Part shown: positions 1,010 through 34,388 of the stretch, one piece after another | Layout of the letters: every line of letters begins with the position of its first letter | Position numbering within the stretch: the stretch's first letter is position 1 | Sequence record: KX130865 | Source: Shigella phage SHSML-52-1 | Length of the DNA: 64,000 nucleotides | Direction: 5' to 3' (one strand) | Notes under the pieces: model-generated | What the model saw: only the letters and a program-made list of their open reading frames with translations | Databases searched by the model: none | What the model was told of the DNA's origin: nothing | Position numbers and translations under genes: made by a program

Positions 1010-1831
1010 TTATTGTTTTCTAGGACCAGGAGGGGTTGGTGGAGTCGGGATTGGAATATCATGAGTATAAGTTTGTTCAACTTCACCATTCCAATCTTGT
1101 GCTTCAACGTCTCTCGGTTTAATTTCTGTATCAACTGATTCAAAAACGCTGGCGGCTGTTTGAAGGTCTCGTTCATTAGCATGAAAATCAAGATAAGTCG
1201 TTTTAATAAGGCCTTCAGCTGCGCCTACCGGAGGATACATCCATCCATTTACTTCAAATGTTAATGACCACTCTAAACGTCGACGAGATAAATTATCACC
1301 GTCTATTTGTTCATCCATTGCTGCTGCCATCCATACGACTTTAATATCCCTTTCAAATGGAATATCCTGCCCATATTGCTCAATCATAGTCGTATTAAAA
1401 TGCGGCTGAAAATATGGAATAATTTGCTCAACGATTTGGAACATATCATCTTCATAACGAGTAAAGATGCTCAGTTCAAAAATCATTTTAATTGGTGATG
1501 GGTTGTATTGGTCTACAATATCCTTAGTCGATTTACTCAAAAGAGAGTTATTCAATATATTCGTTTTAAACGTTGGGTTATAAACGAAATCTACCATTTG
1601 GAGATTTATACGTGGTAGAATAGTTTCGACTTTAGCCACATCTTCTTGTGAGTTTATAGAGGTCCATTTATTAAGTTTCATCATAAAGTGCTCTTTAGAT
1701 GCATACGTAATAGGAACTCTAATTAATTTATTGCCTGTAGACAATTGACGGTTAACTTGGATATTTGAAAACAAATCGCCCATCATTGTGATATATCGCC
1801 TGAACGACGAGTTGTAAAAATAGCCAAACAT
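1010..1831 (-). CDS. 15: tail sheath stabiliser / tail terminator gp15
   Basis: 273 aa beginning MFGYFYNSSFRRY, near-identical to the T4 gp15 sequence I recall; synteny. Confidence 0.9.
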   Translation of the reverse strand: MFGYFYNSSFRRYITMMGDLFSNIQVNRQLSTGNKLIRVPITYASKEHFMMKLNKWTSINSQEDVAKVETILPRINLQMVDFVYNPTFKTNILNNSLLSKSTKDIVDQYNPSPIKMIFELSIFTRYEDDMFQIVEQIIPYFQPHFNTTMIEQYGQDIPFERDIKVVWMAAAMDEQIDGDNLSRRRLEWSLTFEVNGWMYPPVGAAEGLIKTTYLDFHANERDLQTAASVFESVDTEIKPRDVEAQDWNGEVEQTYTHDIPIPTPPTPPGPRKQ

Positions 1832-1883
1832 TATTTCTCCTAACCGGTCTTTCGACCGGTGTTTGCTTTATCTTATCTATTTA

Positions 1884-2648
1884 TTAATTCATAAACCCGT
1901 CATCAAATGGTGAATTTTGTCTACCACGGTTGTTAACTACTACATATGGTTCAACGTATTCACTTGCCTCTGAATTGATTTGCTCAACTTCAGAATATTC
2001 ATCGATATTAATGTCATGGATACCGTCAAGATTTCTAACAGGGTTAAGTTCCAAGTCACTAAATTCAGGTATATTGATACCTTCATTTTTCTGAAGCACT
2101 GGATTGATTTCTTCGCCAGAGTAAATAAACTTGCCTGCAGTAATTTTACGAATCGCATTTTTACCTACTTGATAGAATGGGTCATATGGTTCAACCCAGT
2201 TAATCTCAAACAAACTGTTGTCCATTGGGAAGTATATTAAATCACCTTCCTTAGGCTCCTGATTGTTGACCTGGTGTTTGAAAAGACCTGGGTTAATAGA
2301 TAATGTAACTTCGTCTTGAACTTGCATTCCGAAGTTGCTGAAGAACGATTTCGCTCCTTCATAACCTTCAAAAGAGTTCAGATATGCAGCAAATTTCCAT
2401 GCTTTAGTAAATTTATTTTTAAGGTCCTCACCAAAGATAAGGTCCACAGCAACATATTCACGTGGAACATAAAAACATTCAATACCGCGCATCTGTATGC
2501 TTTCTGCCACTAGAACATCAGCTAGGGTTTGACTATTTTCGTATTTGTTGAAGTTCACGTATTTGTTTAAAATCTCGGTCTCATTTGTCTGAGAATACCC
2601 ATCACGATTTTCTAGCTTGGCGAAAAGATTTTTATCATAAGTTGCCAT
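1884..2648 (-). CDS. 14: neck protein gp14
   Basis: 254 aa; T4 order 13-14-15; size matches T4 gp14. Confidence 0.85.
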
Positions 2649-2649
2649 A

Positions 2650-3576
2650 TTAACCTACCAAAATACCTGCAGGAGGGTCTAGTAAATATAACTCTTCTCG
2701 TAAAGCTTCTTTCTCTAAACGAGCTTCTTCAATTAATCGAACACCGTCGACAGTGACACCACCCGGTAACATCATACCTTGATGTTTAGCAAGAATTTGT
2801 CCGTTAAGCTCTTTAGCTAATGCAGTTGCATAATCTTTAACCCAGCGGTTGTTATATGCGCCTTGTTTAGTTGCAGGATCTTCACCAACTCGACGTCCGA
2901 CCAAATTATGGTCTGGATTATCATAACGTTCAGAAAGAGACCATGAATCACGAGGACCGACCTGTCCGTACCCTACTGTATTTCCTACCATCTTATGGGT
3001 CTCGATATAAGAGCGAACATACGATTCAACGATAATGACGTCTTTTTGTCTAAAGTTACCCATTACTTTTAATTGCTCGTTTGCAGAGTTAAACCAAAAA
3101 TCTGGAAGAGGAGCAATCATATCTTGAAGCATACCCATATAAGATACTAATTGAGAATAATACCCGAGATCAGCGCCAAAAGCGTTCGGGCCGTAGAATT
3201 TACCACAATTACTACCCATACCACCTGAAACGCCAGCCATTCCTAAAAGGAAATCAGTGAACCATGGATAAGTTGCATTACCATCCATTGAAGTAATAGA
3301 GCCAACGTTTGTTCTTATAATTCTTGTTACAGCAAATACATTAGAACCACGCATATCAAATACGCCATGACGGTATTTTTCTTCGTCATCAACAAAAAAT
3401 ACATGGAAACCTTTATTCAACCCGTCAAAATGGTATTCGCCATAAAGTTCTAACGCTCGTGAAATACAATCATAAATTTGGTCTGTAGTTAATTCAACAT
3501 TTACAATAGGAGCGCCTAAACGACGTAATATTACATCCTTTAATTCTTTAGGGTTTTGTGCATTATAACCTGACAT
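2650..3576 (-). CDS. 13: neck protein gp13
   Basis: 308 aa; synteny between wac and 14; size matches T4 gp13. Confidence 0.85.
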
Positions 3577-3608: not shown

Positions 3609-5057
3609 TTAAGCTGTAGGAAGTTCAACCCATGCGCCATCTTTGCGAACATAGAATTTACCGTCTGAAGGAGCATCTTCAATATATCCAGCGTCCTTAA
3701 GAGTTTGGATTTCAGCTTCTGCAGCGGCCAAATCAGTTTCAAGAGTAGCAATTCTAGAAGTTAAACCATTAATTGTCGTATCATGACTTTTAACTGTAGG
3801 CAATATACCGCGTTCTTCAACAGTCGAACCATTTGGGTTGGTGCCATTTATAAGAGTATTTAATGTGTTTACAGAACCCTTAATTCCTGTGGAATTAGTC
3901 CCAACATCAGTTTGAATGTTCTGAATGTCATTACTCATCCCACTGATAGTTCCTTCAAGCTCGCGAGTACGATAAAGCAGAGAGCCGTCTGGTTCCGGTT
4001 TCCCACCTGAAGCGTCAACACCAACTACGTTATTTAACCATGACACATTAAAACGCAGTCCTGACGAAGAATCAGAGCCGACAACAGTGTTCAATGCTCC
4101 GATAGCATCAGTATTGAGTTTAATACGTCCTTGGATTGTAGTAGGCAAATCATCAGCGCCAATGGCAGTTTCTACTGTAGTCAAACGAGGTTTAATACCA
4201 CCTGATTGATTGAGCTCAAGATTAATGTCGTTTATTGCTGAACTATTCGCATTAGTTGTAGTAATAATAGAAGTCGTATTAGGATACCCAATAGACTGTT
4301 TAATGCCATCCAAGTCAGCATTTTGACGCGACAAAGTTAAATCAATACCGGAAAGACGACTAAACACTGGAGTAGTGAAAGAAGTGCGAGGTCCCATTTC
4401 TTCGCGCAAGTGTTCGACTTCAGTAGTTAAAGAGCCGACGTCAGAATCAGCAAATTTAGTTTCTAGATCAGTTAATCGAACACCGTGGTCAACAATTACG
4501 GAGCTATTAGTCATAATACGGCGTTTCATACCAGTGCTATCATTTCCTGGAGTAGGAACCCCATTAATATCTTGACCAGTATATTGTCCTAATTCATTTT
4601 TAATCCAAAGCAGGTCGTTACGAACCGTTCTATAAACTGAATCTTTTTCCTGATTATAAACACCAATATCATCAGTATTCGCATCAATATGTTCATTCAA
4701 ATCATTCAATTCACTAGCATGGGTTTGAACTGTGACTTTAATGACATCAATATCTTGGGTGTTCTGGCCTATCTGTGCAAGAGCATCAACATCCCCAGAA
4801 ACATCTAAAATACCTTGAATAACTTTGATATCTTCATTGGCCGTATTCAAAGAAGATGCTATAGTTTTAATATTAACATCTAACGCTTCTACGTTACGTT
4901 GAACTTCAACAATAGGACGGTTCATTACACCTTCAGAACCGTATTTTGTGTCAGCACCTGTTATTTCTTCATCGTTTTTAATCCATTCAATACGACTCTG
5001 ACCCGCGTCTGGCGGGCCGTCAACATATGGTAAATCTACCAGAGTTATATCAGCCAT
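3609..5057 (-). CDS. wac: fibritin (whisker / neck fibre)
   Basis: 482 aa; coiled-coil body and C-terminal GYIEDAPSDGKFYVRKDGAWVELPTA foldon-like end as in T4 fibritin. Confidence 0.9.
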   Translation of the reverse strand: MADITLVDLPYVDGPPDAGQSRIEWIKNDEEITGADTKYGSEGVMNRPIVEVQRNVEALDVNIKTIASSLNTANEDIKVIQGILDVSGDVDALAQIGQNTQDIDVIKVTVQTHASELNDLNEHIDANTDDIGVYNQEKDSVYRTVRNDLLWIKNELGQYTGQDINGVPTPGNDSTGMKRRIMTNSSVIVDHGVRLTDLETKFADSDVGSLTTEVEHLREEMGPRTSFTTPVFSRLSGIDLTLSRQNADLDGIKQSIGYPNTTSIITTTNANSSAINDINLELNQSGGIKPRLTTVETAIGADDLPTTIQGRIKLNTDAIGALNTVVGSDSSSGLRFNVSWLNNVVGVDASGGKPEPDGSLLYRTRELEGTISGMSNDIQNIQTDVGTNSTGIKGSVNTLNTLINGTNPNGSTVEERGILPTVKSHDTTINGLTSRIATLETDLAAAEAEIQTLKDAGYIEDAPSDGKFYVRKDGAWVELPTA

Positions 5058-6640
5058 TATTTTACCTTAATGATATAGTTTAAAGAAATGTTCCATGGAC
5101 GTGTTTCATTTCCAATTAATTCAGGACGATTTAATGTATATTTGGAATTTCGTTGTGATGCCGGGTCAATTTCATATCCGTCATTGGTGAAGTATGAACG
5201 GTTATCCCAGTCGAGTCCTTTACGTGTACCAACAAAATTTGATCTACGGGTATTACCGAATGCTCCAGAATCATCATGTTCACCAAAACCGCCAGCATGC
5301 TTATGATATGACATCTGTTGTTTCTGTACTTCACCAACATATCCACCAGTACAACCTACACCTAATCTAGGCTTACCAAACTGGTCATTACCATTAACAT
5401 TTGGATTTGTTAAGTGAGAGCCACGACCTGAGCCACGAACAAATAATCCACGCATATCAGGCAAGCCTGGGTTAGAAGAACTACCACCATATCGTGTCCC
5501 AATTCTGGAAGCATATACCGGACATTCTGAAGCAGAAACGGTCCCACCGTGACAGAAGCGCCAGTCAGAACTCGGTAAACTATCTGCAGCCCACATTGTA
5601 ATAGCGCCAACTGGAAGAATTCGGTCTAATTCATTTTGAGTCACAATACGATTGCCTTGAATATAACCACCGGTCATATTGACATTACCCGTTATATTAG
5701 CACCACCAGAACCAACCGTCAACGTATTATTAATGCGAAGCGTGCCATTAATAGTTTGTCCGCCTCGTTGGTGGATAACATCAGCATTCCAAGCAAGGGC
5801 AGAAGAACCATCACCACCTGATTGGTTACCCGCTTGTGTAGTTAAACGAACAACCCCGCGTAAAGAAGTTGTAGCACCACGTCCGTTTAATGTTGCGCCG
5901 GTCACTACAACTGAAGAGTTGTTACTATTTACTTCAGTCTGTGTCCCTAGTTTAACGACACCTTTATTAGTTTCTGATGCTACTGAATTCATAAAGGTAT
6001 AAGGTGAAATTGCATAGCCTTCACGCAGGGTGCCTTGTTGTGCTTGTGCAACTGTAGCTAAACGAACAACACCTGTAATAGATTCGGTGGCGTCACTATT
6101 ATTTGGAGCAATTTGTGAAATAAGTTTAATTGCTAATTGTTGTGTTTTTAACGGGGTCATTGCCGTTGTATCGTCAGAACCAGCTAATGCCGCAGCAGAA
6201 GTTGAAATTTTAATTACACCATTTGTTGCTTCTGTTGATACTTTTGTCTGGAATACATTGTCTATTTTTTGATTCAATTTAAGCGGAGTAATTGATGCAT
6301 CGTCAATAGCTCCGGCTACTGCTTCATCTTCAGTAGCATAACGAGTTAAACCATATTGAGTTTCGGTTGCATTAGGATATTGTAGACGAGCATTCAGTGA
6401 TGCCGGAGTAACAGCTTTACTATTATCTAATCCATCAATAACTTCTTGTGGAGTGGCTATTTGAATAATTCCAGGTGTAGTAGTTGTTGCTTCCGGTACG
6501 CCATTAACACCTGAAGGAGAAATAGCAGCTAATGCGGCTTGGACATTAGTGACTGTATCTGGAAAATTCGACCCAGTAGGGTCGAATTCAACGTAAATAG
6601 ATTCATTTGAAACGTGTTGGTATGTATTGTTATTACTCAT
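5057..6640 (-). CDS. 12: short tail fibre protein gp12
   Basis: 527 aa, identical length to T4 gp12; synteny between 11 and wac. Confidence 0.9.
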
Positions 6641-9101: not shown

Positions 9102-9973
9102 TATTGAGCGACCCCAATTTTCTGTGTTGAGATAATTTTAACTGCTGAACGTAATCCAATAATATCGGATGTAATCGTCATAGTAGCAAAGTTGTTAATA
9201 ATACTAAAGCTAATATTAGCAATCTCGTCGGTTTCATCTACGTTACCAACTCGCATTACTGCAAATTCGGTAGAAAGAACTTCTGAGTTAATTGTATCTA
9301 TTAGAATATTTATTTCGCATGTTTTTATTTTTCTACCGTCGGCGGATTGGCATGTAACAAGCAATTTAGCCATATTATAATCTGTGCGATAAAACAGAGG
9401 AATAGAAACTGTGTTTCCTGTAAGACTCCAAGTCCCATCGACAGGAGATTCTTTCTGCCCAAACATGCTATCAGTAGAATAATTCCATACTGAAGTTGGC
9501 CCATTAAGTTCAATACAACGAAGAACAACATGGGTATAAGGGGTGGAAATAACAAGATTATTAAGAACACCTTTAATTGAACCATCAGTTACTTGGATAC
9601 TTAAAGGATTGTTAACAGAAATAGACCCATTAGAGTTTATGAATTCTACAGAGTCACCTAATTCAGGACGGTCAATAATAACAATCACACCACCATCAGA
9701 AGCATCAATATCATGCATAGTGCCTGGTTTAATAGGAGTTTGATAATCGGCTGCCTTTCCTTTTTGATAATAACCTGTGGCATGAATAGTTTGACCTGTA
9801 GGTCCGGTTCCATCTGCTACGGCCATTTTACGTTGATCGCCAAATGCATTGTAAATAGCGTTGATATCGTCATTTATTTTATTACCACCGTCGAATAAGA
9901 TATCACCTGTTGAGGCATTACCAATTTCGCCGGTATCGATTAATTGTTTAGGAGTTTGCTTAAAAAATGCCAT
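9101..9973 (-). CDS. 9: baseplate wedge protein gp9 (long tail fibre socket)
   Basis: 290 aa; synteny between 8 and 10; late promoter immediately upstream. Confidence 0.85.
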   Translation of the reverse strand: MAFFKQTPKQLIDTGEIGNASTGDILFDGGNKINDDINAIYNAFGDQRKMAVADGTGPTGQTIHATGYYQKGKAADYQTPIKPGTMHDIDASDGGVIVIIDRPELGDSVEFINSNGSISVNNPLSIQVTDGSIKGVLNNLVISTPYTHVVLRCIELNGPTSVWNYSTDSMFGQKESPVDGTWSLTGNTVSIPLFYRTDYNMAKLLVTCQSADGRKIKTCEINILIDTINSEVLSTEFAVMRVGNVDETDEIANISFSIINNFATMTITSDIIGLRSAVKIISTQKIGVAQ

Positions 9974-27334: not shown

Positions 27335-27928
27335 ATGAACACTCTGAAGAAACTTGTTGAATTCATTCGCACTAAACTGGGTACTGCCATGGCTAAAAAT
27401 CTGACTGTCGAAGAACAGTATAACGCAGCTGCAGATAAGTTGATTACCCAAATCAAAGAACTAAAAACGGCTTCTGTTAAATCTATTAATGAAGAAAAAC
27501 GTATTCGCGAACTTGTTAATGAAAAGAACAAGCAAGCCGCTTCTAAGGAACGTGAAATTCGTAAACTCCTGGCTGAAGGACAAGATGTTACCATGCATGC
27601 TAAGCTTGGTCTTCTGTATCGTCGAACTGCCGAACAACTTAATACAAAAGCTGACGGGTATGCCGCTATGCGAATTGAAATTGCTCGTAAGGTGGTTGAA
27701 CTTGACGATGCTCGTCAGAACCTGGCAATCAAACTCGAATACATTCGTGAAACTCGAGCAGCCAATGCCCTTGGTATCTCTACCGCTGACGATGTAATTG
27801 AAATCGCTGCACTGACTAAGGTTGATATCGAAGACACTCTGACTCGTGTTGAAACGTTCAATGGCACTCCAGCTGGTGTCGAAACCACTTCTGCTGATGT
27901 ACAAGAATATATTAACTCTTTGAAATAA
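27335..27928 (+). CDS. coiled-coil protein, possibly PspA/IM30-like
   Basis: 197 aa, almost entirely heptad-like helical sequence with an amphipathic N-terminus; family assignment is a guess. Confidence 0.5.
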
Positions 27929-27936
27929 AATAATAC

Positions 27937-27958
27937 GGAGGACTCCGGTCCTCCTTTT
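27937..27958 (+). terminator. intrinsic terminator
   Basis: GGAGGAC-TCCG-GTCCTCC followed by TTTT, right after the stop at 27928. Confidence 0.7.
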
Positions 27959-27977
27959 GGATAATAAAGGAGTTAAC

Positions 27978-28580
27978 ATGCGAAACCAAAATAATGATAT
28001 TGACTCAATGTTCGAAGAGTTCCGAGATAAGGTAAATCCACCTACGTCTTTAGTTGATTCATTACGATATGTTGCAACCGGACGTAAATGGTACTGGTCG
28101 TCTTCTTATGAGACCACCGAGAAAACGGCTAGCCATAGCAGAAAATCTTTATTAGCCCCAGGTATTATGATTCATGATATCGGAGCTATTGCTAAACTAG
28201 TTGCAGACCATGATATTAGATTCACTGATTTCGTTGCTCCTACGTGGTCTGTTTGTTGTTTAAACACTGAATGGGAATATATCAGCGAACGCTCTGAAGA
28301 TTATTATGGTTTTAGAGATAAGCTTCTGAGGTCTAATATGTTTTATATCGATACAGAAGTTCTAGTCGATAATAAAAAATATTACTTTACGTTAATCATC
28401 GATTCTGAAACTATGTATGAAGGCAAGCCTTTGCTTAAAAGAGTTGATGCTTTAAGTGCTATTGATGCGCTTTATGAAACTATGGTTGTTAGTCCTAATT
28501 TCACTAACAATTTAATCCTTGAGCAATTTATTATGGAATGTAGAGAATATGTCAAAGCCAACCCTATACATGCCAAGTAA
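27978..28580 (+). CDS. hypothetical protein (C-terminal FIMECRE tail)
   Basis: 200 aa from ATG 27978 (AAGGAG SD); C-terminus overlaps the start of the next gene. Confidence 0.55.
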   Translation: MRNQNNDIDSMFEEFRDKVNPPTSLVDSLRYVATGRKWYWSSSYETTEKTASHSRKSLLAPGIMIHDIGAIAKLVADHDIRFTDFVAPTWSVCCLNTEWEYISERSEDYYGFRDKLLRSNMFYIDTEVLVDNKKYYFTLIIDSETMYEGKPLLKRVDALSAIDALYETMVVSPNFTNNLILEQFIMECREYVKANPIHAK

Positions 28581-28944
28581 GCCTTGGGCCTACGAATACA
28601 AACGTAAATTAATCCCGTATGAAGTATTATTTGGTCCTATTTTAGCTTTAGCATTTTTAATCTTTATGATTATAGGAGCTATTTTAGATTCTAGTGAAGT
28701 TATATCGTCTGATGCAGCGTTTTCATTAATGTTCGTCGCACCATTTATTGTACCGTTTTTATTAATGCCTATTAATTGGGTAGGATATTGGCACCAAGGC
28801 CGTCATCACAGAGCCCGATTAAGAGAATGGAAAGTTCAGTGCGCAAAAGCCCAAGCTCAGTATGATGAAGCTGTTAAAAAGTATGAATATGAAGAAGCTA
28901 TGGAATTCGTTAAGGAAATAAGATGCAAAAGCCTCAACTCTTAA
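28549..28944 (+). CDS. small membrane protein, FxKExR-tail family member A
   Basis: 131 aa; two hydrophobic helices; C-terminus EFVKEIRCK overlaps the next start. Confidence 0.5.
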   Translation: MSKPTLYMPSKPWAYEYKRKLIPYEVLFGPILALAFLIFMIIGAILDSSEVISSDAAFSLMFVAPFIVPFLLMPINWVGYWHQGRHHRARLREWKVQCAKAQAQYDEAVKKYEYEEAMEFVKEIRCKSLNS

Positions 28945-29282
28945 CCGTATGGCCTTCTCTTGGTGAGAACATTCTAATTTTTATTATGAGTATTGGCATG
29001 GGATTTGCCTTTGGATTAGTTGGATTTCTTATTGACGGCGTTGTGTTAGGATTTATAGGGAACACTGGTGGATTCACAGACCAATGGCAGGACTTACGGT
29101 ATACCCAAGCCTTTGCATCCATCGCATCATTTTGTACTGTAGTCTATTTTTACTACGATTTTATAAACCACAACAAGAAAAATAAAAAGGTTTACGCTTC
29201 TCAAATGATTAGTTATAATGAACTCCTAGCTAGACGTGAAAATGAAACAATCGAAAACTTTATTAAGGAATGTAGAAAATGA
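28923..29282 (+). CDS. small membrane protein, FIKECR-tail family member B
   Basis: 119 aa; hydrophobic N-terminal half; ends ...ENFIKECRK with ATGA overlap to next gene. Confidence 0.55.
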   Translation: MQKPQLLTVWPSLGENILIFIMSIGMGFAFGLVGFLIDGVVLGFIGNTGGFTDQWQDLRYTQAFASIASFCTVVYFYYDFINHNKKNKKVYASQMISYNELLARRENETIENFIKECRK

Positions 29283-29584
29283 GTAAGATTATTGAAATTA
29301 AAGTACCAGAGTTTAATGATGCCAAATCCGCTTCAGATGCAATTTATAAACTTCTGAATCAAGCTGAACGTATCGAAGAAGAAGCAACAAAGATCGCAGA
29401 CCAATATGCCGTATCATTTTCTGTAGGTGATTATGGTAGCGGTCGTACTTATTATCCTAAGGGTGAAATCGTATCCCAGTGGATGAAAGATGAAATTGAA
29501 AATAATGGCGGCGATGTTAAGCGTGAAGGTAATGGATACGTTATTACTGAAGGTGCTTGGGTTTCGTCTTCTGCGTTGTGCTAA
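29279..29584 (+). CDS. hypothetical protein, WVSSS-x-x-C tail family (1 of 3 tandem paralogs)
   Basis: 101 aa ending GAWVSSSALC. Confidence 0.55.
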   Translation: MSKIIEIKVPEFNDAKSASDAIYKLLNQAERIEEEATKIADQYAVSFSVGDYGSGRTYYPKGEIVSQWMKDEIENNGGDVKREGNGYVITEGAWVSSSALC

Positions 29585-29593
29585 GGAATCATT

Positions 29594-29866
29594 ATGTCTA
29601 AAGAACAAACCGAACTGGCTGAAGCTGTAGCAAAAATCTATGCCGCTATTGAGGCTGCCAAAGAAATTGCTGATAAACAAAACACAACATTCAACTTGTA
29701 CCCAGCTTATGGTATGGGTGGAACCTATCATTCACCCGGACATCTTAAAGCCGATCTTGAACGTTGTACAAAAAACGGTTATGCCGAATGGGCTGACGTT
29801 TACCAATACGACTACAACCTGAGCCTCGAAACTGGTGGTTGGGTCGCATCTTCTCACACTTGCTAA
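29594..29866 (+). CDS. hypothetical protein, WVSSS-x-x-C tail family (2 of 3)
   Basis: 90 aa ending GGWVASSHTC; 9-nt intergenic spacer with AAGGAA SD. Confidence 0.55.
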   Translation: MSKEQTELAEAVAKIYAAIEAAKEIADKQNTTFNLYPAYGMGGTYHSPGHLKADLERCTKNGYAEWADVYQYDYNLSLETGGWVASSHTC

Positions 29867-29875
29867 GGAAACAAT

Positions 29876-30073
29876 ATGTCTCGTGAATTAGATTGTGCTG
29901 TACGTACGGCAGTAGCTGCTCTGGAAAACCTGTTCCAAATTGCAACAGAAGAACGCGAAGAAGTTACATTATGGATTGAAGATAACGCAGGTCTGAATCT
30001 CCAGGACGCGATCTCATTATCCCACAATAGTATCACTTTTCAAGGCTGGGTATCATCTAGTTATTCTTGCTAA
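29876..30073 (+). CDS. hypothetical protein, WVSSS-x-x-C tail family (3 of 3)
   Basis: 65 aa ending QGWVSSSYSC. Confidence 0.5.
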   Translation: MSRELDCAVRTAVAALENLFQIATEEREEVTLWIEDNAGLNLQDAISLSHNSITFQGWVSSSYSC

Positions 30074-30077
30074 AACA

Positions 30078-30116
30078 GTTTACAACAAGATAGGGCTATG
30101 TTATAGTAGTCCTATC
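30078..30116 (+). promoter_or_regulatory. early promoter cassette (ATAGGACTATGTTATAGTAGTCCTAT family)
   Basis: GTTTAC 30078-30083; TATAGT 30102-30107 within an imperfect inverted repeat. Confidence 0.55.
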
Positions 30117-30135
30117 AAAACAAATGGAGTCCACA

Positions 30136-30375
30136 ATGATTTATTACGAAAGTATCGGAACCAAAGTGGTTGGTAAAACCATTACTCGTGAAAAGTTTGC
30201 AAAGATATTCGATATGCGTTATAAAAAATCTGAACACAAAGGCATCCGATTCGAAGATGCGCACTGTACAATTTGCCCTTATAATGAAGACATAAACGGT
30301 ACAATCGTTCCATTGGTAGAGGCTTCACATGATGACCTCTGGGATGAATATAATATCGCATGTCGTGAAATTTAA
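30136..30375 (+). CDS. hypothetical protein
   Basis: 79 aa from ATG 30136. Confidence 0.45.
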   Translation: MIYYESIGTKVVGKTITREKFAKIFDMRYKKSEHKGIRFEDAHCTICPYNEDINGTIVPLVEASHDDLWDEYNIACREI

Positions 30376-30403
30376 GTTAATGAATTAATCCGAGGAAAAT
30401 ATT

Positions 30404-31360
30404 ATGATGTTAGTTATTGGTTCTCGTGCACTTCACTATCACGGTCTTATTGATTCTAGCGCTATTAAAAATAGTGATTGGGACTTTATTGCGGACCAAG
30501 GTTCTTGGAATGCATTCAAAAATCAAATGATGGGTGTATATGTTCACCAAGATAACCCTGATGTCCAAGTTTTCAAATGCTTCCATAATGGACGCGAAAC
30601 TCATTTTGAAGCATACATCGTTCCGGCTATCACTAACGTTCGCGAACTAGTCGGTGAACTCACTCCTGAAGATTTCACGTCTTCTTATGACCTTTTAAAA
30701 TACGCCAAGAAAAATTTGACTAAAGACCGTTTGAACGGGTTTTACTGGGCAACTCCTGAGATATGTCTTGCAATTAAGATGTCTCATCGTTTCAAGAAAA
30801 ATAATCCATTCTTTTTAAAGACTATGAACCATATTCAGTATCTTCGTGGTAAAGGTGTTACACTGAACGATGAACTTACTGAAATTATGCTGAAGCGCCA
30901 GAAAGAAACCTTGAATTATGCTCACCCAGTTCTTGACACTTCTAAAAGTGCGTTCTTTAAAGATGACATCTATACATATGACCATGATACTATTCATGAA
31001 GCCATTGCACTAACAGACCGTCCAGCGTATACATTTTATATGAAAGATGGTTCTGAAGTCATGACCTCACGCGAGAAGTTCGAATCATTACCAGAAATGG
31101 TCAAATTGGCCGGCGTATACGAAGAATCATGTGTACTAGCGTTAGAACGTTCTCAGATTCCTAATAATTTTGAAATCCATCCACGTGATAGTTTTATGAT
31201 GGCCCTTGAAAAGGTCTGTACATCAATCACATCAGGATGGTTCCGTGAGTTCGCTTGGGAAAATTATAGCAAAGTAGTAAGTATGTACCAAAGCTTAGGA
31301 CACGACGATTACGTCAAGCGTTTCAAACAAAACTTTCATATGGTAAAACCTTTCAAATAA
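30404..31360 (+). CDS. hypothetical protein (318 aa)
   Basis: Long ORF with AGGAAAA SD; N-terminal GS...SDWDF loosely resembles a nucleotidyltransferase motif but the spacing is atypical. Confidence 0.6.
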   Translation: MMLVIGSRALHYHGLIDSSAIKNSDWDFIADQGSWNAFKNQMMGVYVHQDNPDVQVFKCFHNGRETHFEAYIVPAITNVRELVGELTPEDFTSSYDLLKYAKKNLTKDRLNGFYWATPEICLAIKMSHRFKKNNPFFLKTMNHIQYLRGKGVTLNDELTEIMLKRQKETLNYAHPVLDTSKSAFFKDDIYTYDHDTIHEAIALTDRPAYTFYMKDGSEVMTSREKFESLPEMVKLAGVYEESCVLALERSQIPNNFEIHPRDSFMMALEKVCTSITSGWFREFAWENYSKVVSMYQSLGHDDYVKRFKQNFHMVKPFK

Positions 31361-31372
31361 TTTCACAAAACA

Positions 31373-31402
31373 GTTTACAAGGTCTGTAGTTGTTGATACT
31401 AT
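31373..31402 (+). promoter_or_regulatory. early promoter (-35 GTTTAC, -10 TACTAT)
   Basis: GTTTAC 31373-31378, 18-nt spacer, TACTAT 31397-31402. Confidence 0.55.
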
Positions 31403-31440
31403 AGACCTATCAAAACAAATGAGTGAATGGAGATATAAAA

Positions 31441-31641
31441 ATGACTACTTTGAATAAACGTTTCGGTAAAGCTAAACCTGGTTGTGCAGCAGAACGTCGT
31501 TATGTTTTCGCTCAGTTAGAAGATGTAGAGTATCAGATTAATCAAGTTCACATTACTGGTATCGAGCCTATGTGTGGCCTTGAAGCTCTTCGTGAAGTTC
31601 GTGATGGGTATCGTCGTGACATCGAAGAAATGTCAAAATAA
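31441..31641 (+). CDS. hypothetical protein
   Basis: 66 aa from ATG 31441 (GGAG SD). Confidence 0.45.
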   Translation: MTTLNKRFGKAKPGCAAERRYVFAQLEDVEYQINQVHITGIEPMCGLEALREVRDGYRRDIEEMSK

Positions 31642-31642
31642 G

Positions 31643-31679
31643 TGTACAAACTGATAGGACTATGTTATAGTAGTCCTAT
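31643..31679 (+). promoter_or_regulatory. early promoter cassette (ATAGGACTATGTTATAGTAGTCCTAT family)
   Basis: GTGTAC 31643-31648; TATAGT 31666-31671; arms 31654-31662 and 31671-31679. Confidence 0.55.
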
Positions 31680-31699
31680 TAAAACATGAGGAGAATATT

Positions 31700-32005
31700 A
31701 TGAAATTAGGCGAAACCAACCGAATTGGTCTTTTAACAATATTTGTATCACTTTTTTACGCAGCTCTTTCTGTTGCAGTATTACAAAAGGCTTACAGTAT
31801 GGATGGTGTTCCTGGTTTTGTATTCTTATCGCCGTTTTTGCTATTCGTTGGAGCATTGTTATTATATGCCACGACTAGTTTCGACCATAACGTCTGGGTC
31901 AATTATAAATGTAAATTGTCTGAAGAAGAACACGCAGAAGCTCGTAAAAAAGCTATTGAATCTACCAATCTAGAAAATTTCATTAAAGAATGTCGAGGAA
32001 AATAA
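31700..32005 (+). CDS. small membrane protein, FIKECR-tail family member C
   Basis: 101 aa; two hydrophobic helices; ends ...ENFIKECRGK two nt before the next ATG. Confidence 0.55.
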   Translation: MKLGETNRIGLLTIFVSLFYAALSVAVLQKAYSMDGVPGFVFLSPFLLFVGALLLYATTSFDHNVWVNYKCKLSEEEHAEARKKAIESTNLENFIKECRGK

Positions 32006-32006
32006 T

Positions 32007-32693
32007 ATGAATAGTTCTAAAGTGTTTAATAGTCAAGCTCGTGCAGTAGGTGGTTTTGCTCATGCGATTAAAAATGACCAGATTAAAAACGAGCCTATGT
32101 TCTTTAACTGCGATTTGAATTTTGCTTTTGATAATGGCGGTCCAATTACTCGTAGCTTCATTATGAACTTGCCGGATGATTGGAACACCGACCAGGGTGT
32201 ATTTGATTCACGAGTCCACATGCTGATGCCTGGTTGGTACCCTGCTATCCCAGGTTATCACCATGACGATGTACCACGTCCGGATATTCCGGTTGGTCAA
32301 CATTTTATTACTGCAGGACAACCTGACTATGACAATCCTCGTTACCATTCTGAACATATTCTTGGTCTTGTTAACGCTGATGTGTGTCCTACTCATTTTG
32401 CAACAGGAACTGCAGAGTTCAGTCAGATTCCTGATGGCGAACTTATCTATCGCCAGTGGCACAAAGAAGTCCTCGAAAAAATTGAAAAAGGTGAACTAGA
32501 GAAATGGGAAGCTCCAGACCGTACTCTTCTTCAGTTTGATTGGCAAACATGGCACACTGGTTCTCGTGCAATTAGTAATGGATGGCGTTGGTTCGGACGT
32601 GTATCTCGTAATACAGACCGAGTTAAAAAGATTACCAATGAAATTCGTGTCAATGCTCAAGTTTATCTGGAATTCCCTATGGAAGGCTGGTAA
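32007..32693 (+). CDS. hypothetical protein (His-rich; possible metal-dependent enzyme)
   Basis: 228 aa; HHDD near residue 85 and WHTGSR near residue 185 could be an HxD...H metal site; speculative. Confidence 0.55.
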   Translation: MNSSKVFNSQARAVGGFAHAIKNDQIKNEPMFFNCDLNFAFDNGGPITRSFIMNLPDDWNTDQGVFDSRVHMLMPGWYPAIPGYHHDDVPRPDIPVGQHFITAGQPDYDNPRYHSEHILGLVNADVCPTHFATGTAEFSQIPDGELIYRQWHKEVLEKIEKGELEKWEAPDRTLLQFDWQTWHTGSRAISNGWRWFGRVSRNTDRVKKITNEIRVNAQVYLEFPMEGW

Positions 32694-33184
32694 TGATTAA
32701 CAAAACATATTGGTCTAATATAGACGATGGCAACGAAGGTATTTCGTACTATTCAGTGGATTGGACAGGATGTCCATCCTACTTAGTGAAACGTATTTGC
32801 CAAGAATTTAAAATCGACCAGCCAGCAGGTATTATCGTGAACAGATACATTAATGGATATCAACCTATCGATGAAGTAATACGAACAACTCAAGCTGAGC
32901 TTGAAAAGTTTTTCAATAAGTGCCAATGGATAACAGGATGGATTATATTTGTACCGTCGGTATGGTTTTTCAGTACTAAGGTGAGTTCTTTCGGTTTTGT
33001 TGATATTATTGCTATCTTATTAGCATCTAGTATCGTAAGTGTTGTTGGTGGCATCATTGGCGGCGGTACCGCCGCCATCATTATTAATCTTATTAAAAGT
33101 AGTTTACAAGAACATAAAGACAAGATAAAAGCCAAGAATAATGAAGTTGAACGTTTTATTACCGAATGCAGGAATTTGAGATGA
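32693..33184 (+). CDS. membrane protein, FIKECR-tail family member D
   Basis: 163 aa; hydrophobic central region with G-rich helix; ends ...ERFITECRNLR overlapping the next start. Confidence 0.55.
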   Translation: MINKTYWSNIDDGNEGISYYSVDWTGCPSYLVKRICQEFKIDQPAGIIVNRYINGYQPIDEVIRTTQAELEKFFNKCQWITGWIIFVPSVWFFSTKVSSFGFVDIIAILLASSIVSVVGGIIGGGTAAIIINLIKSSLQEHKDKIKAKNNEVERFITECRNLR

Positions 33185-33417
33185 GTATAGCAATTTACAT
33201 TAAATCAGAATCATGTGATAGTTATCTGTACACATATGATAAAGATGTGTCAGAAGAAAAAATCAAAGACGACCTTAATACGGACCTTGATATGTTCTGT
33301 CCTATTGCAGATTACAAACTTGCGGTCTCTAATAGTGAAAGTCCATCTAAAGAAACGCGCATTGAAGAATTTATGTCTGAATTAATGGCCAAATCATGGG
33401 ACCGAGATGATGAGTAA
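33181..33417 (+). CDS. hypothetical protein
   Basis: 78 aa from ATG 33181 (ATGA overlap with upstream stop). Confidence 0.45.
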   Translation: MSIAIYIKSESCDSYLYTYDKDVSEEKIKDDLNTDLDMFCPIADYKLAVSNSESPSKETRIEEFMSELMAKSWDRDDE

Positions 33418-33865
33418 GAAAAATAAAGTGAAAGAGCTATCAGCCGGTATTATTTTCCTTACCGAAGATAAAGAGTTATTCATGGGGCGTGTAACTGGTT
33501 CTCGTCCTAAAGGTGCATTAACTCATCGGTGGGATATTCCTAAAGGCCGTGTCGAACCTGGCGAATCTCCTATTGAAGCCGCTATTCGTGAATGCGAAGA
33601 AGAAACTGGGTTTACACAATATGACCCTGCCTTCCTGAAAGACCTAGGTGAACATCATTACTCAGACAATAAGAATATTCATCTGTTCCTATATACCATC
33701 CCTGTAGAGCACGAGCAATTCAGAAACAGTGTTTGTAATTCCTATCATACATTCCAAGGCGGACGACAGATTCCTGAATTTGATGCATTCGCTTTAATTA
33801 AACCTTCTCAATGGGAATATGTAATGGGCAAATCGTTATATAAGGTGCTCACTACCCTCCTATAA
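33407..33865 (+). CDS. nudE: Nudix hydrolase NudE (e.1)
   Basis: 152 aa; Nudix box GRVEPGESPIEAAIRECEEETG; adjacent to lysozyme e as in T4. Confidence 0.85.
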   Translation: MMSKKNKVKELSAGIIFLTEDKELFMGRVTGSRPKGALTHRWDIPKGRVEPGESPIEAAIRECEEETGFTQYDPAFLKDLGEHHYSDNKNIHLFLYTIPVEHEQFRNSVCNSYHTFQGGRQIPEFDAFALIKPSQWEYVMGKSLYKVLTTLL

Positions 33866-33867
33866 GT

Positions 33868-33897
33868 AATAAATACCTCCTATAAACGTGGGAGGTA
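33868..33897 (+). promoter_or_regulatory. late promoter-like AATAAATA plus SD-sequestering hairpin of gene e
   Basis: AATAAATA 33868-33875; arms TACCTCC 33874-33880 and GGAGGTA 33891-33897, the right arm being the SD of e; same layout as the classic T4 e control region. Confidence 0.6.
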
Positions 33898-33899
33898 TT

Positions 33900-34388
33900 A
33901 TGAATATATTTGAAATGCTTCGTAATGACGAAGGTCTTAGACTGACTTTATACAAAGACACTGAAGGCTTTTGGACGATTGGCATAGGCCATTTAGTAAC
34001 AAAGAACCCGTCTTTAGCCGTAGCTAAAGCTGAACTTGACAGAATGATCGGCCGTAAATGCAACGGTACAATTACCCTTGATGAGGCTGAAAAGCTATTT
34101 AATGAAGACGTTGATAAAGCTGTCCGCGGAATCTTGGGTAATGCTAAACTTAAACCGGTATATGATTCTTTAGATGCAGTTCGTCGGTGTGCATTGGTCA
34201 ATATGGTCTTCCAAATGGGTGTAGCAGGAGTCGCCGGTTTTACTAATTCTCTTCGTATGCTTAAACAGAAACGTTGGGATGAAGCGGCAGTAAATCTAGC
34301 TCAATCTAAATGGTATCGTCAGACACCTAATCGCGCGAAACGCGTAATCTCAACATTTAAAACAGGAACTTGGAAAGCGTATATATGA
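33900..34388 (+). CDS. e: endolysin (T4 lysozyme e)
   Basis: Begins [32 protein letters not shown], near-identical to T4 lysozyme; start at ATG 33900 not the upstream GTG. Confidence 0.95.

Follow-up and report, generated by a model that had tools for sequence, protein, structure and literature searches.

The tail-bearing genes between e.6 and nudE

We analysed a cluster of small genes in Shigella phage SHSML-52-1 (sequence record KX130865), using a 64,000-nucleotide (nt) stretch that we refer to as the window. Five genes at positions 27978–33184 encode proteins that carry a closely related short sequence, the tail, at or near the C-terminus. The window is that of a Mosigvirus (RB69-like, T4-type), with 99.2% identity to Escherichia phage FP43 over 27900–33400, and the five genes were named via an annotated relative and phage T4 as e.5, e.4, e.3, RB69-ORF133c (ORF133c below) and e.2. 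All lie on the plus strand. The e.5 homologue (27978–28580, phrog_2607, PF26876 Phage_T4_Y06P) is a soluble protein of 200 residues. The homologues of e.4 (28549–28944, 131 residues, phrog_2604), e.3 (28923–29282, 119 residues, phrog_2330) and ORF133c (31700–32005, 101 residues, phrog_9798; found in Mosigvirus only) each have two hydrophobic segments, and that of e.2 (32693–33184, 163 residues, phrog_2203, PF26896 Phage_T4_Y06M) combines a soluble N-terminal domain with two hydrophobic segments.

The tail of e.5 reads F-I-M-E-C-R (28527–28544) and is followed by 11 more residues (EYVKANPIHAK). In e.4 it reads F-V-K-E-I-R-C (28906–28926, of which F-V-K-E-I-R is 28906–28923), with the cysteine displaced by two residues and six residues between the motif F-V-K-E-I-R and the protein end. 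The remaining three are F-I-K-E-C-R-K in e.3 (29259–29279, F-I-K-E-C-R at 29259–29276), F-I-K-E-C-R-G-K in ORF133c (31979–32002, F-I-K-E-C-R at 31979–31996) and F-I-T-E-C-R-N-L-R in e.2 (33155–33181, F-I-T-E-C-R at 33155–33172), all on the plus strand. The pattern F[IV]xE[CI]R has exactly five matches in the six-frame translation of the window, all within 12 codons of a stop. Chance would give a mean of 0.19 and a maximum of 2, and none of 300 codon-block shuffles reached five, so the tail motif is not a chance occurrence.

The tails stand at tightly packed gene junctions. The e.5 gene overlaps the e.4 gene, from its start codon (28549), by 32 nt and e.4 overlaps e.3 by 22 nt, while the stop codons of e.3 and e.2 overlap the next start codons (29279, as ATGA, and 33181). 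Of the five copies in the window, only those of e.4 and e.3 have an AAGGA Shine-Dalgarno (SD) sequence within the motif; that of e.4 is 6 nt upstream of the e.3 start codon (28923). At the ORF133c junction, GAGGA from the Arg-Gly codons CGA-GGA serves as the SD sequence for the next gene (32007), and at the e.2 junction, read directly from the sequence, AGGAA from the Arg-Asn codons lies 7 nt before the annotated start at 33181. An SD scan found no good candidate inside the motif at the e.5 junction.

A hydropathy scan of e.4, e.3, ORF133c and e.2 showed two hydrophobic stretches and, C-terminal to them, a segment rich in Lys and Arg. Past the second stretch there are 7–11 Lys and Arg residues, and a charged linker of 25–45 residues separates it from the tail. 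The same scan gave no convincing membrane segment in e.5. A first-pass annotation of the sequence had listed five related tails and described four of the five carriers as predicted membrane proteins, and both observations are borne out. Its description of the tails as protein ends is right for e.3, ORF133c and e.2 and wrong for e.5 and e.4, and its statement that the motif contains the downstream AAGGA applies to e.4 and e.3, not to ORF133c, e.2 or e.5, where the SD sequence is respectively GAGGA, AGGAA from the Arg-Asn codons, and none good.

Database searches told us little about what the carriers do. None of the five has a meaningful match in Pfam (local copy), NCBIfam, PADLOC or PDB sequences, and PHROGs assigns them to five separate families of unassigned function. 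A large protein database has name-only families for e.5 and e.2 (those given above), queries with e.2 and e.5 against large protein collections returned near-identical relatives only, and an e.3 query in the IMG/VR locus search returned two loci. Literature searches covering T4 e.2–e.6, homologues of PspA/Vipp1 in phages and the former ‘msp’ gene names turned up nothing of relevance.

The cluster is flanked by e.6 (27335–27928, plus strand), which lies outside the motif set and encodes an all-helical protein of 197 residues with a predicted Vipp1/PspA-like fold, and by nudE (33407–33865), after which comes the lysozyme gene e (33888–34388). Between e.6 and e.5, on the plus strand, is a terminator-like hairpin (27937–27954) of the form GGAGGAC-TCCG-GTCCTCC followed by TTTT.

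Peptide and nucleotide constraint on the tail

We compared the same region in T4 and four other Tequatroviruses, other Mosigviruses, Dhakavirus IME08, phage LQ5, Gaprivervirus UPEC07 and UPEC01, Kanagawavirus IME523, Yersinia phage fHe-Yen9-01, Serratia phage X20, Klebsiella phage PWKp16 and two metagenome contigs. This gave 47 tails across 11 lineages, with 3–6 per genome (Mosigvirus, Tequatrovirus, Dhakavirus, Gaprivervirus, Kanagawavirus, LQ5, the Yersinia, Serratia and Klebsiella phages, and a metagenome contig). The consensus is a hydrophobic residue at −3, then [E/N]-x-F-[I/V]-K-E-C-R, then 0–15 further residues. The tail is the best- or near-best-conserved portion of e.4, ORF133c and e.2.

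A motif at gene junctions need not be kept for the protein’s sake. The sequence could be retained as the ribosome-binding site or translational-coupling region of the next gene, with the peptide a by-product, and a fixed translational-coupling module was one of the two readings offered by the first-pass annotation. Such an origin would suit the position of the tails, as every one lies 17–46 nt ahead of the next start codon (counted from the Phe codon), several contain a well-spaced AAGGA or GAGGA, and in e.5 and e.4 the motif coincides with the gene junction and not with the protein end. The distances, however, vary almost three-fold, and the SD sequence may come from the K-E or E-E codons inside the motif, from the R-x codons after it or, in Dhakavirus e.5, from 30 nt downstream. 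In Cronobacter phage leB the motif is about 30 residues ahead of the stop.

Codon usage points the same way. The Phe, Cys and Arg positions carry no SD content yet are the most conserved, and they are written in many ways: Arg with five codons from both codon families (AGA 18, CGT 10, CGA 6, AGG 6, CGC 4), Cys with both of its codons (TGT 21, TGC 17) and Phe likewise (TTT 34, TTC 11). In the window, the e.3 and ORF133c tails both read ENFIKECR and have four synonymous differences and zero amino-acid differences. Other gene ends in the same loci also carry the SD sequence of the next gene, but share no common peptide and are less conserved than their own bodies. The varied codons, spacing and SD placement thus exclude a fixed RNA module; the peptide is the constant, and the ribosome-binding site is fitted to it by codon choice.

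Substitution rates within genera bear on both kinds of constraint. In the tail genes, differences in the last nine codons were 0.018 (synonymous) and 0.034 (amino acid), as against 0.095 and 0.091 in the body; for other genes of the same loci the corresponding values were 0.056 and 0.035 in the last nine codons, and 0.082 and 0.028 in the body. Amino-acid change in the last nine codons relative to each gene’s own body was therefore 0.37 for tail genes and 1.25 for other genes, ratios that are indicative only because the within-genus pairs are not independent. The synonymous values favour a nucleotide role, with only 6 changes of 339 in tails among close relatives and 64 of 1146 at other gene ends (0.018 vs 0.056). 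This low rate fits dual coding with the start region of the next gene, together with the e.5/e.4 and e.4/e.3 overlaps.

On this comparative evidence the tail motif is shown to be under selection as a peptide, and a constraint at the RNA level acts on the tail DNA as well. The nucleotide-level conservation and fixed spacing that would mark a translational-coupling or SD module are not found, and the nucleotide constraint is secondary; that the peptide is a mere by-product of the ribosome-binding site strikes us as very unlikely. What remains of the nucleotide side of the first-pass proposal is the low synonymous change and the duplicated junction of MH992122 described below, not the fixed module. 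The tails illustrate dual coding: the same bases encode a protein motif and serve the next gene as its ribosome-binding site, and codon choice settles the conflict.

Relationships among the carriers and rearrangement of the cluster

The first-pass annotation had also proposed that the membrane carriers are a paralogous inner-membrane family with a conserved cytoplasmic tail, and had named an alignment outside the tail as a check. We compared the families with and without their tails, tail removal being a cut from six residues before the motif onward. With tails kept, iterative searches joined e.4, e.3 and ORF133c, and e.2 joined ORF133c, e.3 and Dhakavirus e.5-like proteins. With tails removed, iterative jackhmmer searches left the five families fully separate. 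Profile–profile comparison (hhalign) behaved similarly: at full length, e.4–e.3 scored 75% over 113 columns and ORF133c–e.2 84% over 62 columns, and without tails e.4–e.3 fell to 12.9% over 89 columns and every other pair to 2% or less. When the four membrane modules were built into one profile and compared with 1.84 billion representative proteins, only the same T-even families came back. Since the similarity between families disappears with the tail, the tail is a motif common to different bodies.

The tail could nonetheless be a relic of common descent, the slowest-evolving piece of one gene that was duplicated in tandem, such as a structural element within each protein, with no shared partner to keep it. 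The four membrane carriers have the same layout of two hydrophobic segments, a charged linker of 25–45 residues and the tail; e.4 and e.3 also start alike (MSKP.L and MQKP.L), their tailless alignment retains the weak signal just given, ORF133c matches the e.2 family profile at an E value of 1.2e-4, and a metagenome contig (L021) has five tandem copies. Against this, no family recruits another once the tail is gone, and pairs other than e.4–e.3 are at or below 2%. The layout is absent from e.5, and the soluble e.5-position proteins of 93–316 residues cannot share a membrane-protein body; further soluble carriers are IME08 orf118, the open reading frames (ORFs) 3088–3366 of IME523 and 9666–9950 of PWKp16, and small ORFs of a metagenome contig. 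A fold core made of nine residues at the tip of a flexible, charged linker would also be unlikely. We give descent from a single gene a minor but appreciable chance. The genes e.4 and e.3 may be old tandem duplicates, a single paralogous membrane-protein family is not demonstrable, and the shared element overall is the tail alone. Of the paralogy proposal, the conserved tail survives, selected as a peptide and probably cytoplasmic, and the common ancestry cannot be shown.

Several genomes record how the cluster has been rearranged. In reference T4 (NC_000866, locus 1491–1961, minus strand), e.2 is broken into a 102-residue ORF and two out-of-frame remnants, whereas other Tequatroviruses have an intact e.2 of 162 residues. 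The last remnant, which reads MFIEMPWRLRRQQKIFDEKKYAQNLNNFITECRKLK, keeps the tail FITECRKLK, and its end falls on the start codon of nudE. In the T4 annotation, nudE starts (MQEIKM...) at an ATG within the tail codons GAA-TGC. In phages phiE142 and LF82-1 (L004, 5930–6110; L005, about 4990–5090), codons 5–89 of e.3 are deleted and the last 30 codons retained. In MH992122, codon 5 of e.3 is a stop and a tandem duplication covers ∼145 nt of the e.4-tail/e.3 junction (L023, 3880–4260), yielding a 60-residue ORF (P0024) that joins an e.3 body to an e.4 tail; the joint is a 3-nt microhomology ∼20 nt upstream of the motif. Thus e.3 is decaying in some Mosigviruses, and 3′ modules can be kept, duplicated and re-attached, a possible route for unrelated bodies to gain the tail.

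These events raise the question of whether, as the first-pass suggestion of spread by recombination would have it, the tail with the start of the next gene is itself mobile. It would then be a junction cassette, a 3′ module that serves as a recombination substrate and reshuffles the genes of this variable region in the manner of the promoter/stem-loop (PeSL) elements. The e.3–e.2 interval differs by 3–4.5 kb between genera with breakpoints at gene boundaries, phiE142 and LF82-1 have lost the e.3 body and kept its end, and the duplicated junction of MH992122 has produced a chimera, which shows that 3′ modules can move. The tails themselves, however, are poor substrates, in that copies within one genome share at most ∼18–24 nt, with mismatches, and a stretch of that length is too short for efficient homologous exchange. 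The MH992122 joint is outside the tail, and no tail stands at the right-hand breakpoint ahead of e.2, where ORF132c ends EFPMEGW. The rearrangements do not show the tail as a recombination site, and the codon pattern would in any case still require selection on the peptide. We regard a mobile cassette as most improbable.

PeSL elements are non-coding promoter/terminator hairpins between genes in the variable regions of T4-type phages (PMC2839356, PMC4122927). Like them, the tails are short elements repeated at the gene junctions of a variable early region; unlike them, the tails are coding, contain no promoter or terminator/hairpin match and are conserved as amino acids. PeSL-like features do occur in the window, where an early-promoter-like GTTTACA ... 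TATAGT is found in hairpins such as TAGGACTATGTTATAGTAGTCCTA at ∼30075–30125, 31365–31420 and 31640–31690.

Linkage to e.6 and a candidate docking role

We scanned 100 kb of FP43, essentially all of its early genes, for the relaxed pattern [FWY][IVL]xxC[RK] within 16 residues of a C-terminus. It occurs only in e.5, e.3, ORF133c and e.2, apart from a thymidine kinase match (YVSLCRK) that we took as chance. In all lineages examined, the gene directly upstream of the tail genes is e.6, which encodes a highly conserved protein of 197 residues present in 1108 phage records. Two distant phages, Aeromonas phage Aes012 and Cronobacter phage leB, have e.6 relocated beside the nrd genes and lack small membrane carriers; the gene just after e.6 nevertheless keeps F-V-D-Y-C-R (Aes012) or F-I-H-S-C-K (leB) near the C-terminus of a soluble protein (288 residues, L024 5630–6496, in Aes012; 316 residues, L025 5624–6574, in leB). 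We roughly estimate the probability of such a match arising by chance in one protein at below 1e-3. The most distant e.6 (47% identity) is on contig L021, with five tandem two-segment proteins downstream (913–2657), whose tails are degenerate (IFAKNMK, IFTRGLK, KFAKAVK), with a hydrophobic residue for Cys and Lys for Arg. The motif is therefore specific to this cluster and linked to e.6.

In an AlphaFold2 model of e.6 from a 28-sequence alignment (predicted local distance difference test score, pLDDT, 78.5), an N-terminal helix is followed by a long helical hairpin (25–80 and 86–145) and two short helices. In a Foldseek search of this model against the PDB, the top ten hits were all Vipp1 (best E 8.4e-4), followed by archaeal CdvB2, and the e.6 sequence profile gave weak colinear matches to Vipp1 among PDB sequences (E 1–2). 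There was no match in Pfam (PspA_IM30) or NCBIfam, and hhalign against an approximate E. coli PspA sequence scored a non-significant 0.6%. The predicted fold makes ‘Vipp1/PspA-like’ a lead for e.6 and not a family membership.

A peptide under selection, on unrelated bodies, at the end of a charged linker, within one gene set and on carriers that are individually dispensable and redundant, fits a docking motif. We propose that the tail is a short peptide docking site for a common partner of otherwise unrelated early proteins, possibly e.6, and we judge the chances of this to be even. Purifying selection keeps the tail on several unrelated early proteins encoded just downstream of e.6, namely the soluble e.5 and the small, predicted two-segment inner-membrane proteins e.4, e.3, ORF133c and e.2. 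From the positive-inside rule, the tail would most probably lie in the cytoplasm and form a short helix that acts as a common docking site for the co-expressed carriers, so that they might bind one shared partner, or each other, through it. The best candidate for that partner would be the Vipp1/PspA-like e.6, the obvious choice as the association outlasts the relocation of e.6, although we put this forward as speculation. The ribosome-binding site of the next gene is a secondary, overlapping constraint, supplied by AAG-GAA or GAG-GAA inside the motif or by AGG or CGA-GGA just after it. The tail Cys is probably a small hydrophobic contact and not a reactive centre, because it is replaced by I, V, S, M or L in some tails. 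Special Cys chemistry (metal or redox) is correspondingly unlikely, with I, V, S and M at this position in e.4-type tails and L, M and V in L021.

Several observations weigh against a docking role. Conserved gene order among related phages is weak evidence of physical contact, the amphipathicity of the tail is significant in just two or three of the five copies, and the e.5 AlphaFold2 model is unusable (pLDDT 36.5). Single carriers can be lost: reference T4 has a broken e.2, IME08 lacks e.4, and in phiE142, LF82-1 and MH992122 e.3 has either been deleted or become a pseudogene. The low synonymous change in the tails, and the RNA-level constraint that it reveals, belong on the same side.

A C-terminal motif on several co-expressed early proteins, each dispensable on its own, could also be a turnover or targeting signal, read by a host protease or the membrane-insertion machinery and setting the lifetime or location of the carrier. 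The 0–15 unrelated residues that follow the motif mean that the free C-terminus is not part of it, which makes a C-terminal degron unlikely; a soluble protein carries the tail too, and we know of no bacterial degron that it resembles. We hold such a signal to be highly improbable.

Short C-terminal docking peptides are familiar from the MIM tails of ESCRT-III proteins, the SSB tail and the FtsZ C-terminal peptide. The phage tail resembles these as a near-C-terminal peptide of about nine residues that follows a flexible charged linker, is far more conserved than the body and occurs on unrelated bodies. It differs in sequence from the MIM, SSB and FtsZ motifs, and in being carried by several proteins of one phage and not by one hub protein. 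A second comparison is with the phage-shock (Psp) system, where PspA is held by a cytoplasmic segment of its small membrane partners PspB and PspC, and with Vipp1/IM30 of the ESCRT-III superfamily. Here, e.6, with its helical-hairpin scaffold model, adjoins small inner-membrane proteins with a predicted cytoplasmic C-terminal segment that could hold such a scaffold. No carrier has a Pfam match above threshold to the PspC or PspB models. We can picture a T-even Psp-like membrane-maintenance system, in which an e.6 scaffold (Vipp1/PspA-type, ESCRT-III superfamily) would serve to stabilise or reshape the inner membrane of the infected host. Its recruitment or regulation would fall to the soluble e.5 and to small membrane adaptors with two segments, a set that varies (e.4, e.3, ORF133c, e.2 and others), all acting through the shared F-[I/V]-x-x-C-R helix; we consider this extended picture unlikely.

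The first-pass annotation had suggested exclusion or lysis-timing roles for the membrane carriers by analogy with T4 Imm and Sp, and this finds no support. Imm and Sp are likewise small early inner-membrane proteins of T-even phages, but Pfam and PHROGs give no sequence relationship between them and the carriers, and to our knowledge they lack this tail. No carrier matched Imm, Sp, T, RI or other holin families in Pfam, PHROGs or NCBIfam, the PADLOC defence models gave no significant match, and the FP43 genes annotated imm, rI and holin sit elsewhere, away from the tail cluster.

The tail is a real and widely conserved motif of T-even early proteins, undescribed as far as our searches show. 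The genes e.2–e.6 are among the many T4 genes of no known function; through the tail, five to seven of them can be grouped as one candidate functional module, for which it offers a precise experimental handle. Were e.6 indeed the partner, and Vipp1/PspA-like, the best-studied phage would encode a membrane-remodelling or membrane-protection system of its own.

Two further features of the cluster were noted. Within the second membrane segment of e.2 (33058–33077) is a G+C-rich perfect palindrome of 20 nt, TGGCGGCGGTACCGCCGCCA, which encodes GGGTAA. It was picked out as terminator-like and stands out in a genome of 37% G+C. Directly after e.3, three small soluble genes in tandem (29279–29584, 29594–29866 and 29876–30073) end W-V-[S/A]-S-S-x-x-C-stop, each followed by a TAAGGAA-type start region. 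This family, with tails such as WVSSSxxC and WxxSSC, has two to five copies at this position in every genus examined, and the cluster thus has a second C-terminal tail common to several of its proteins.

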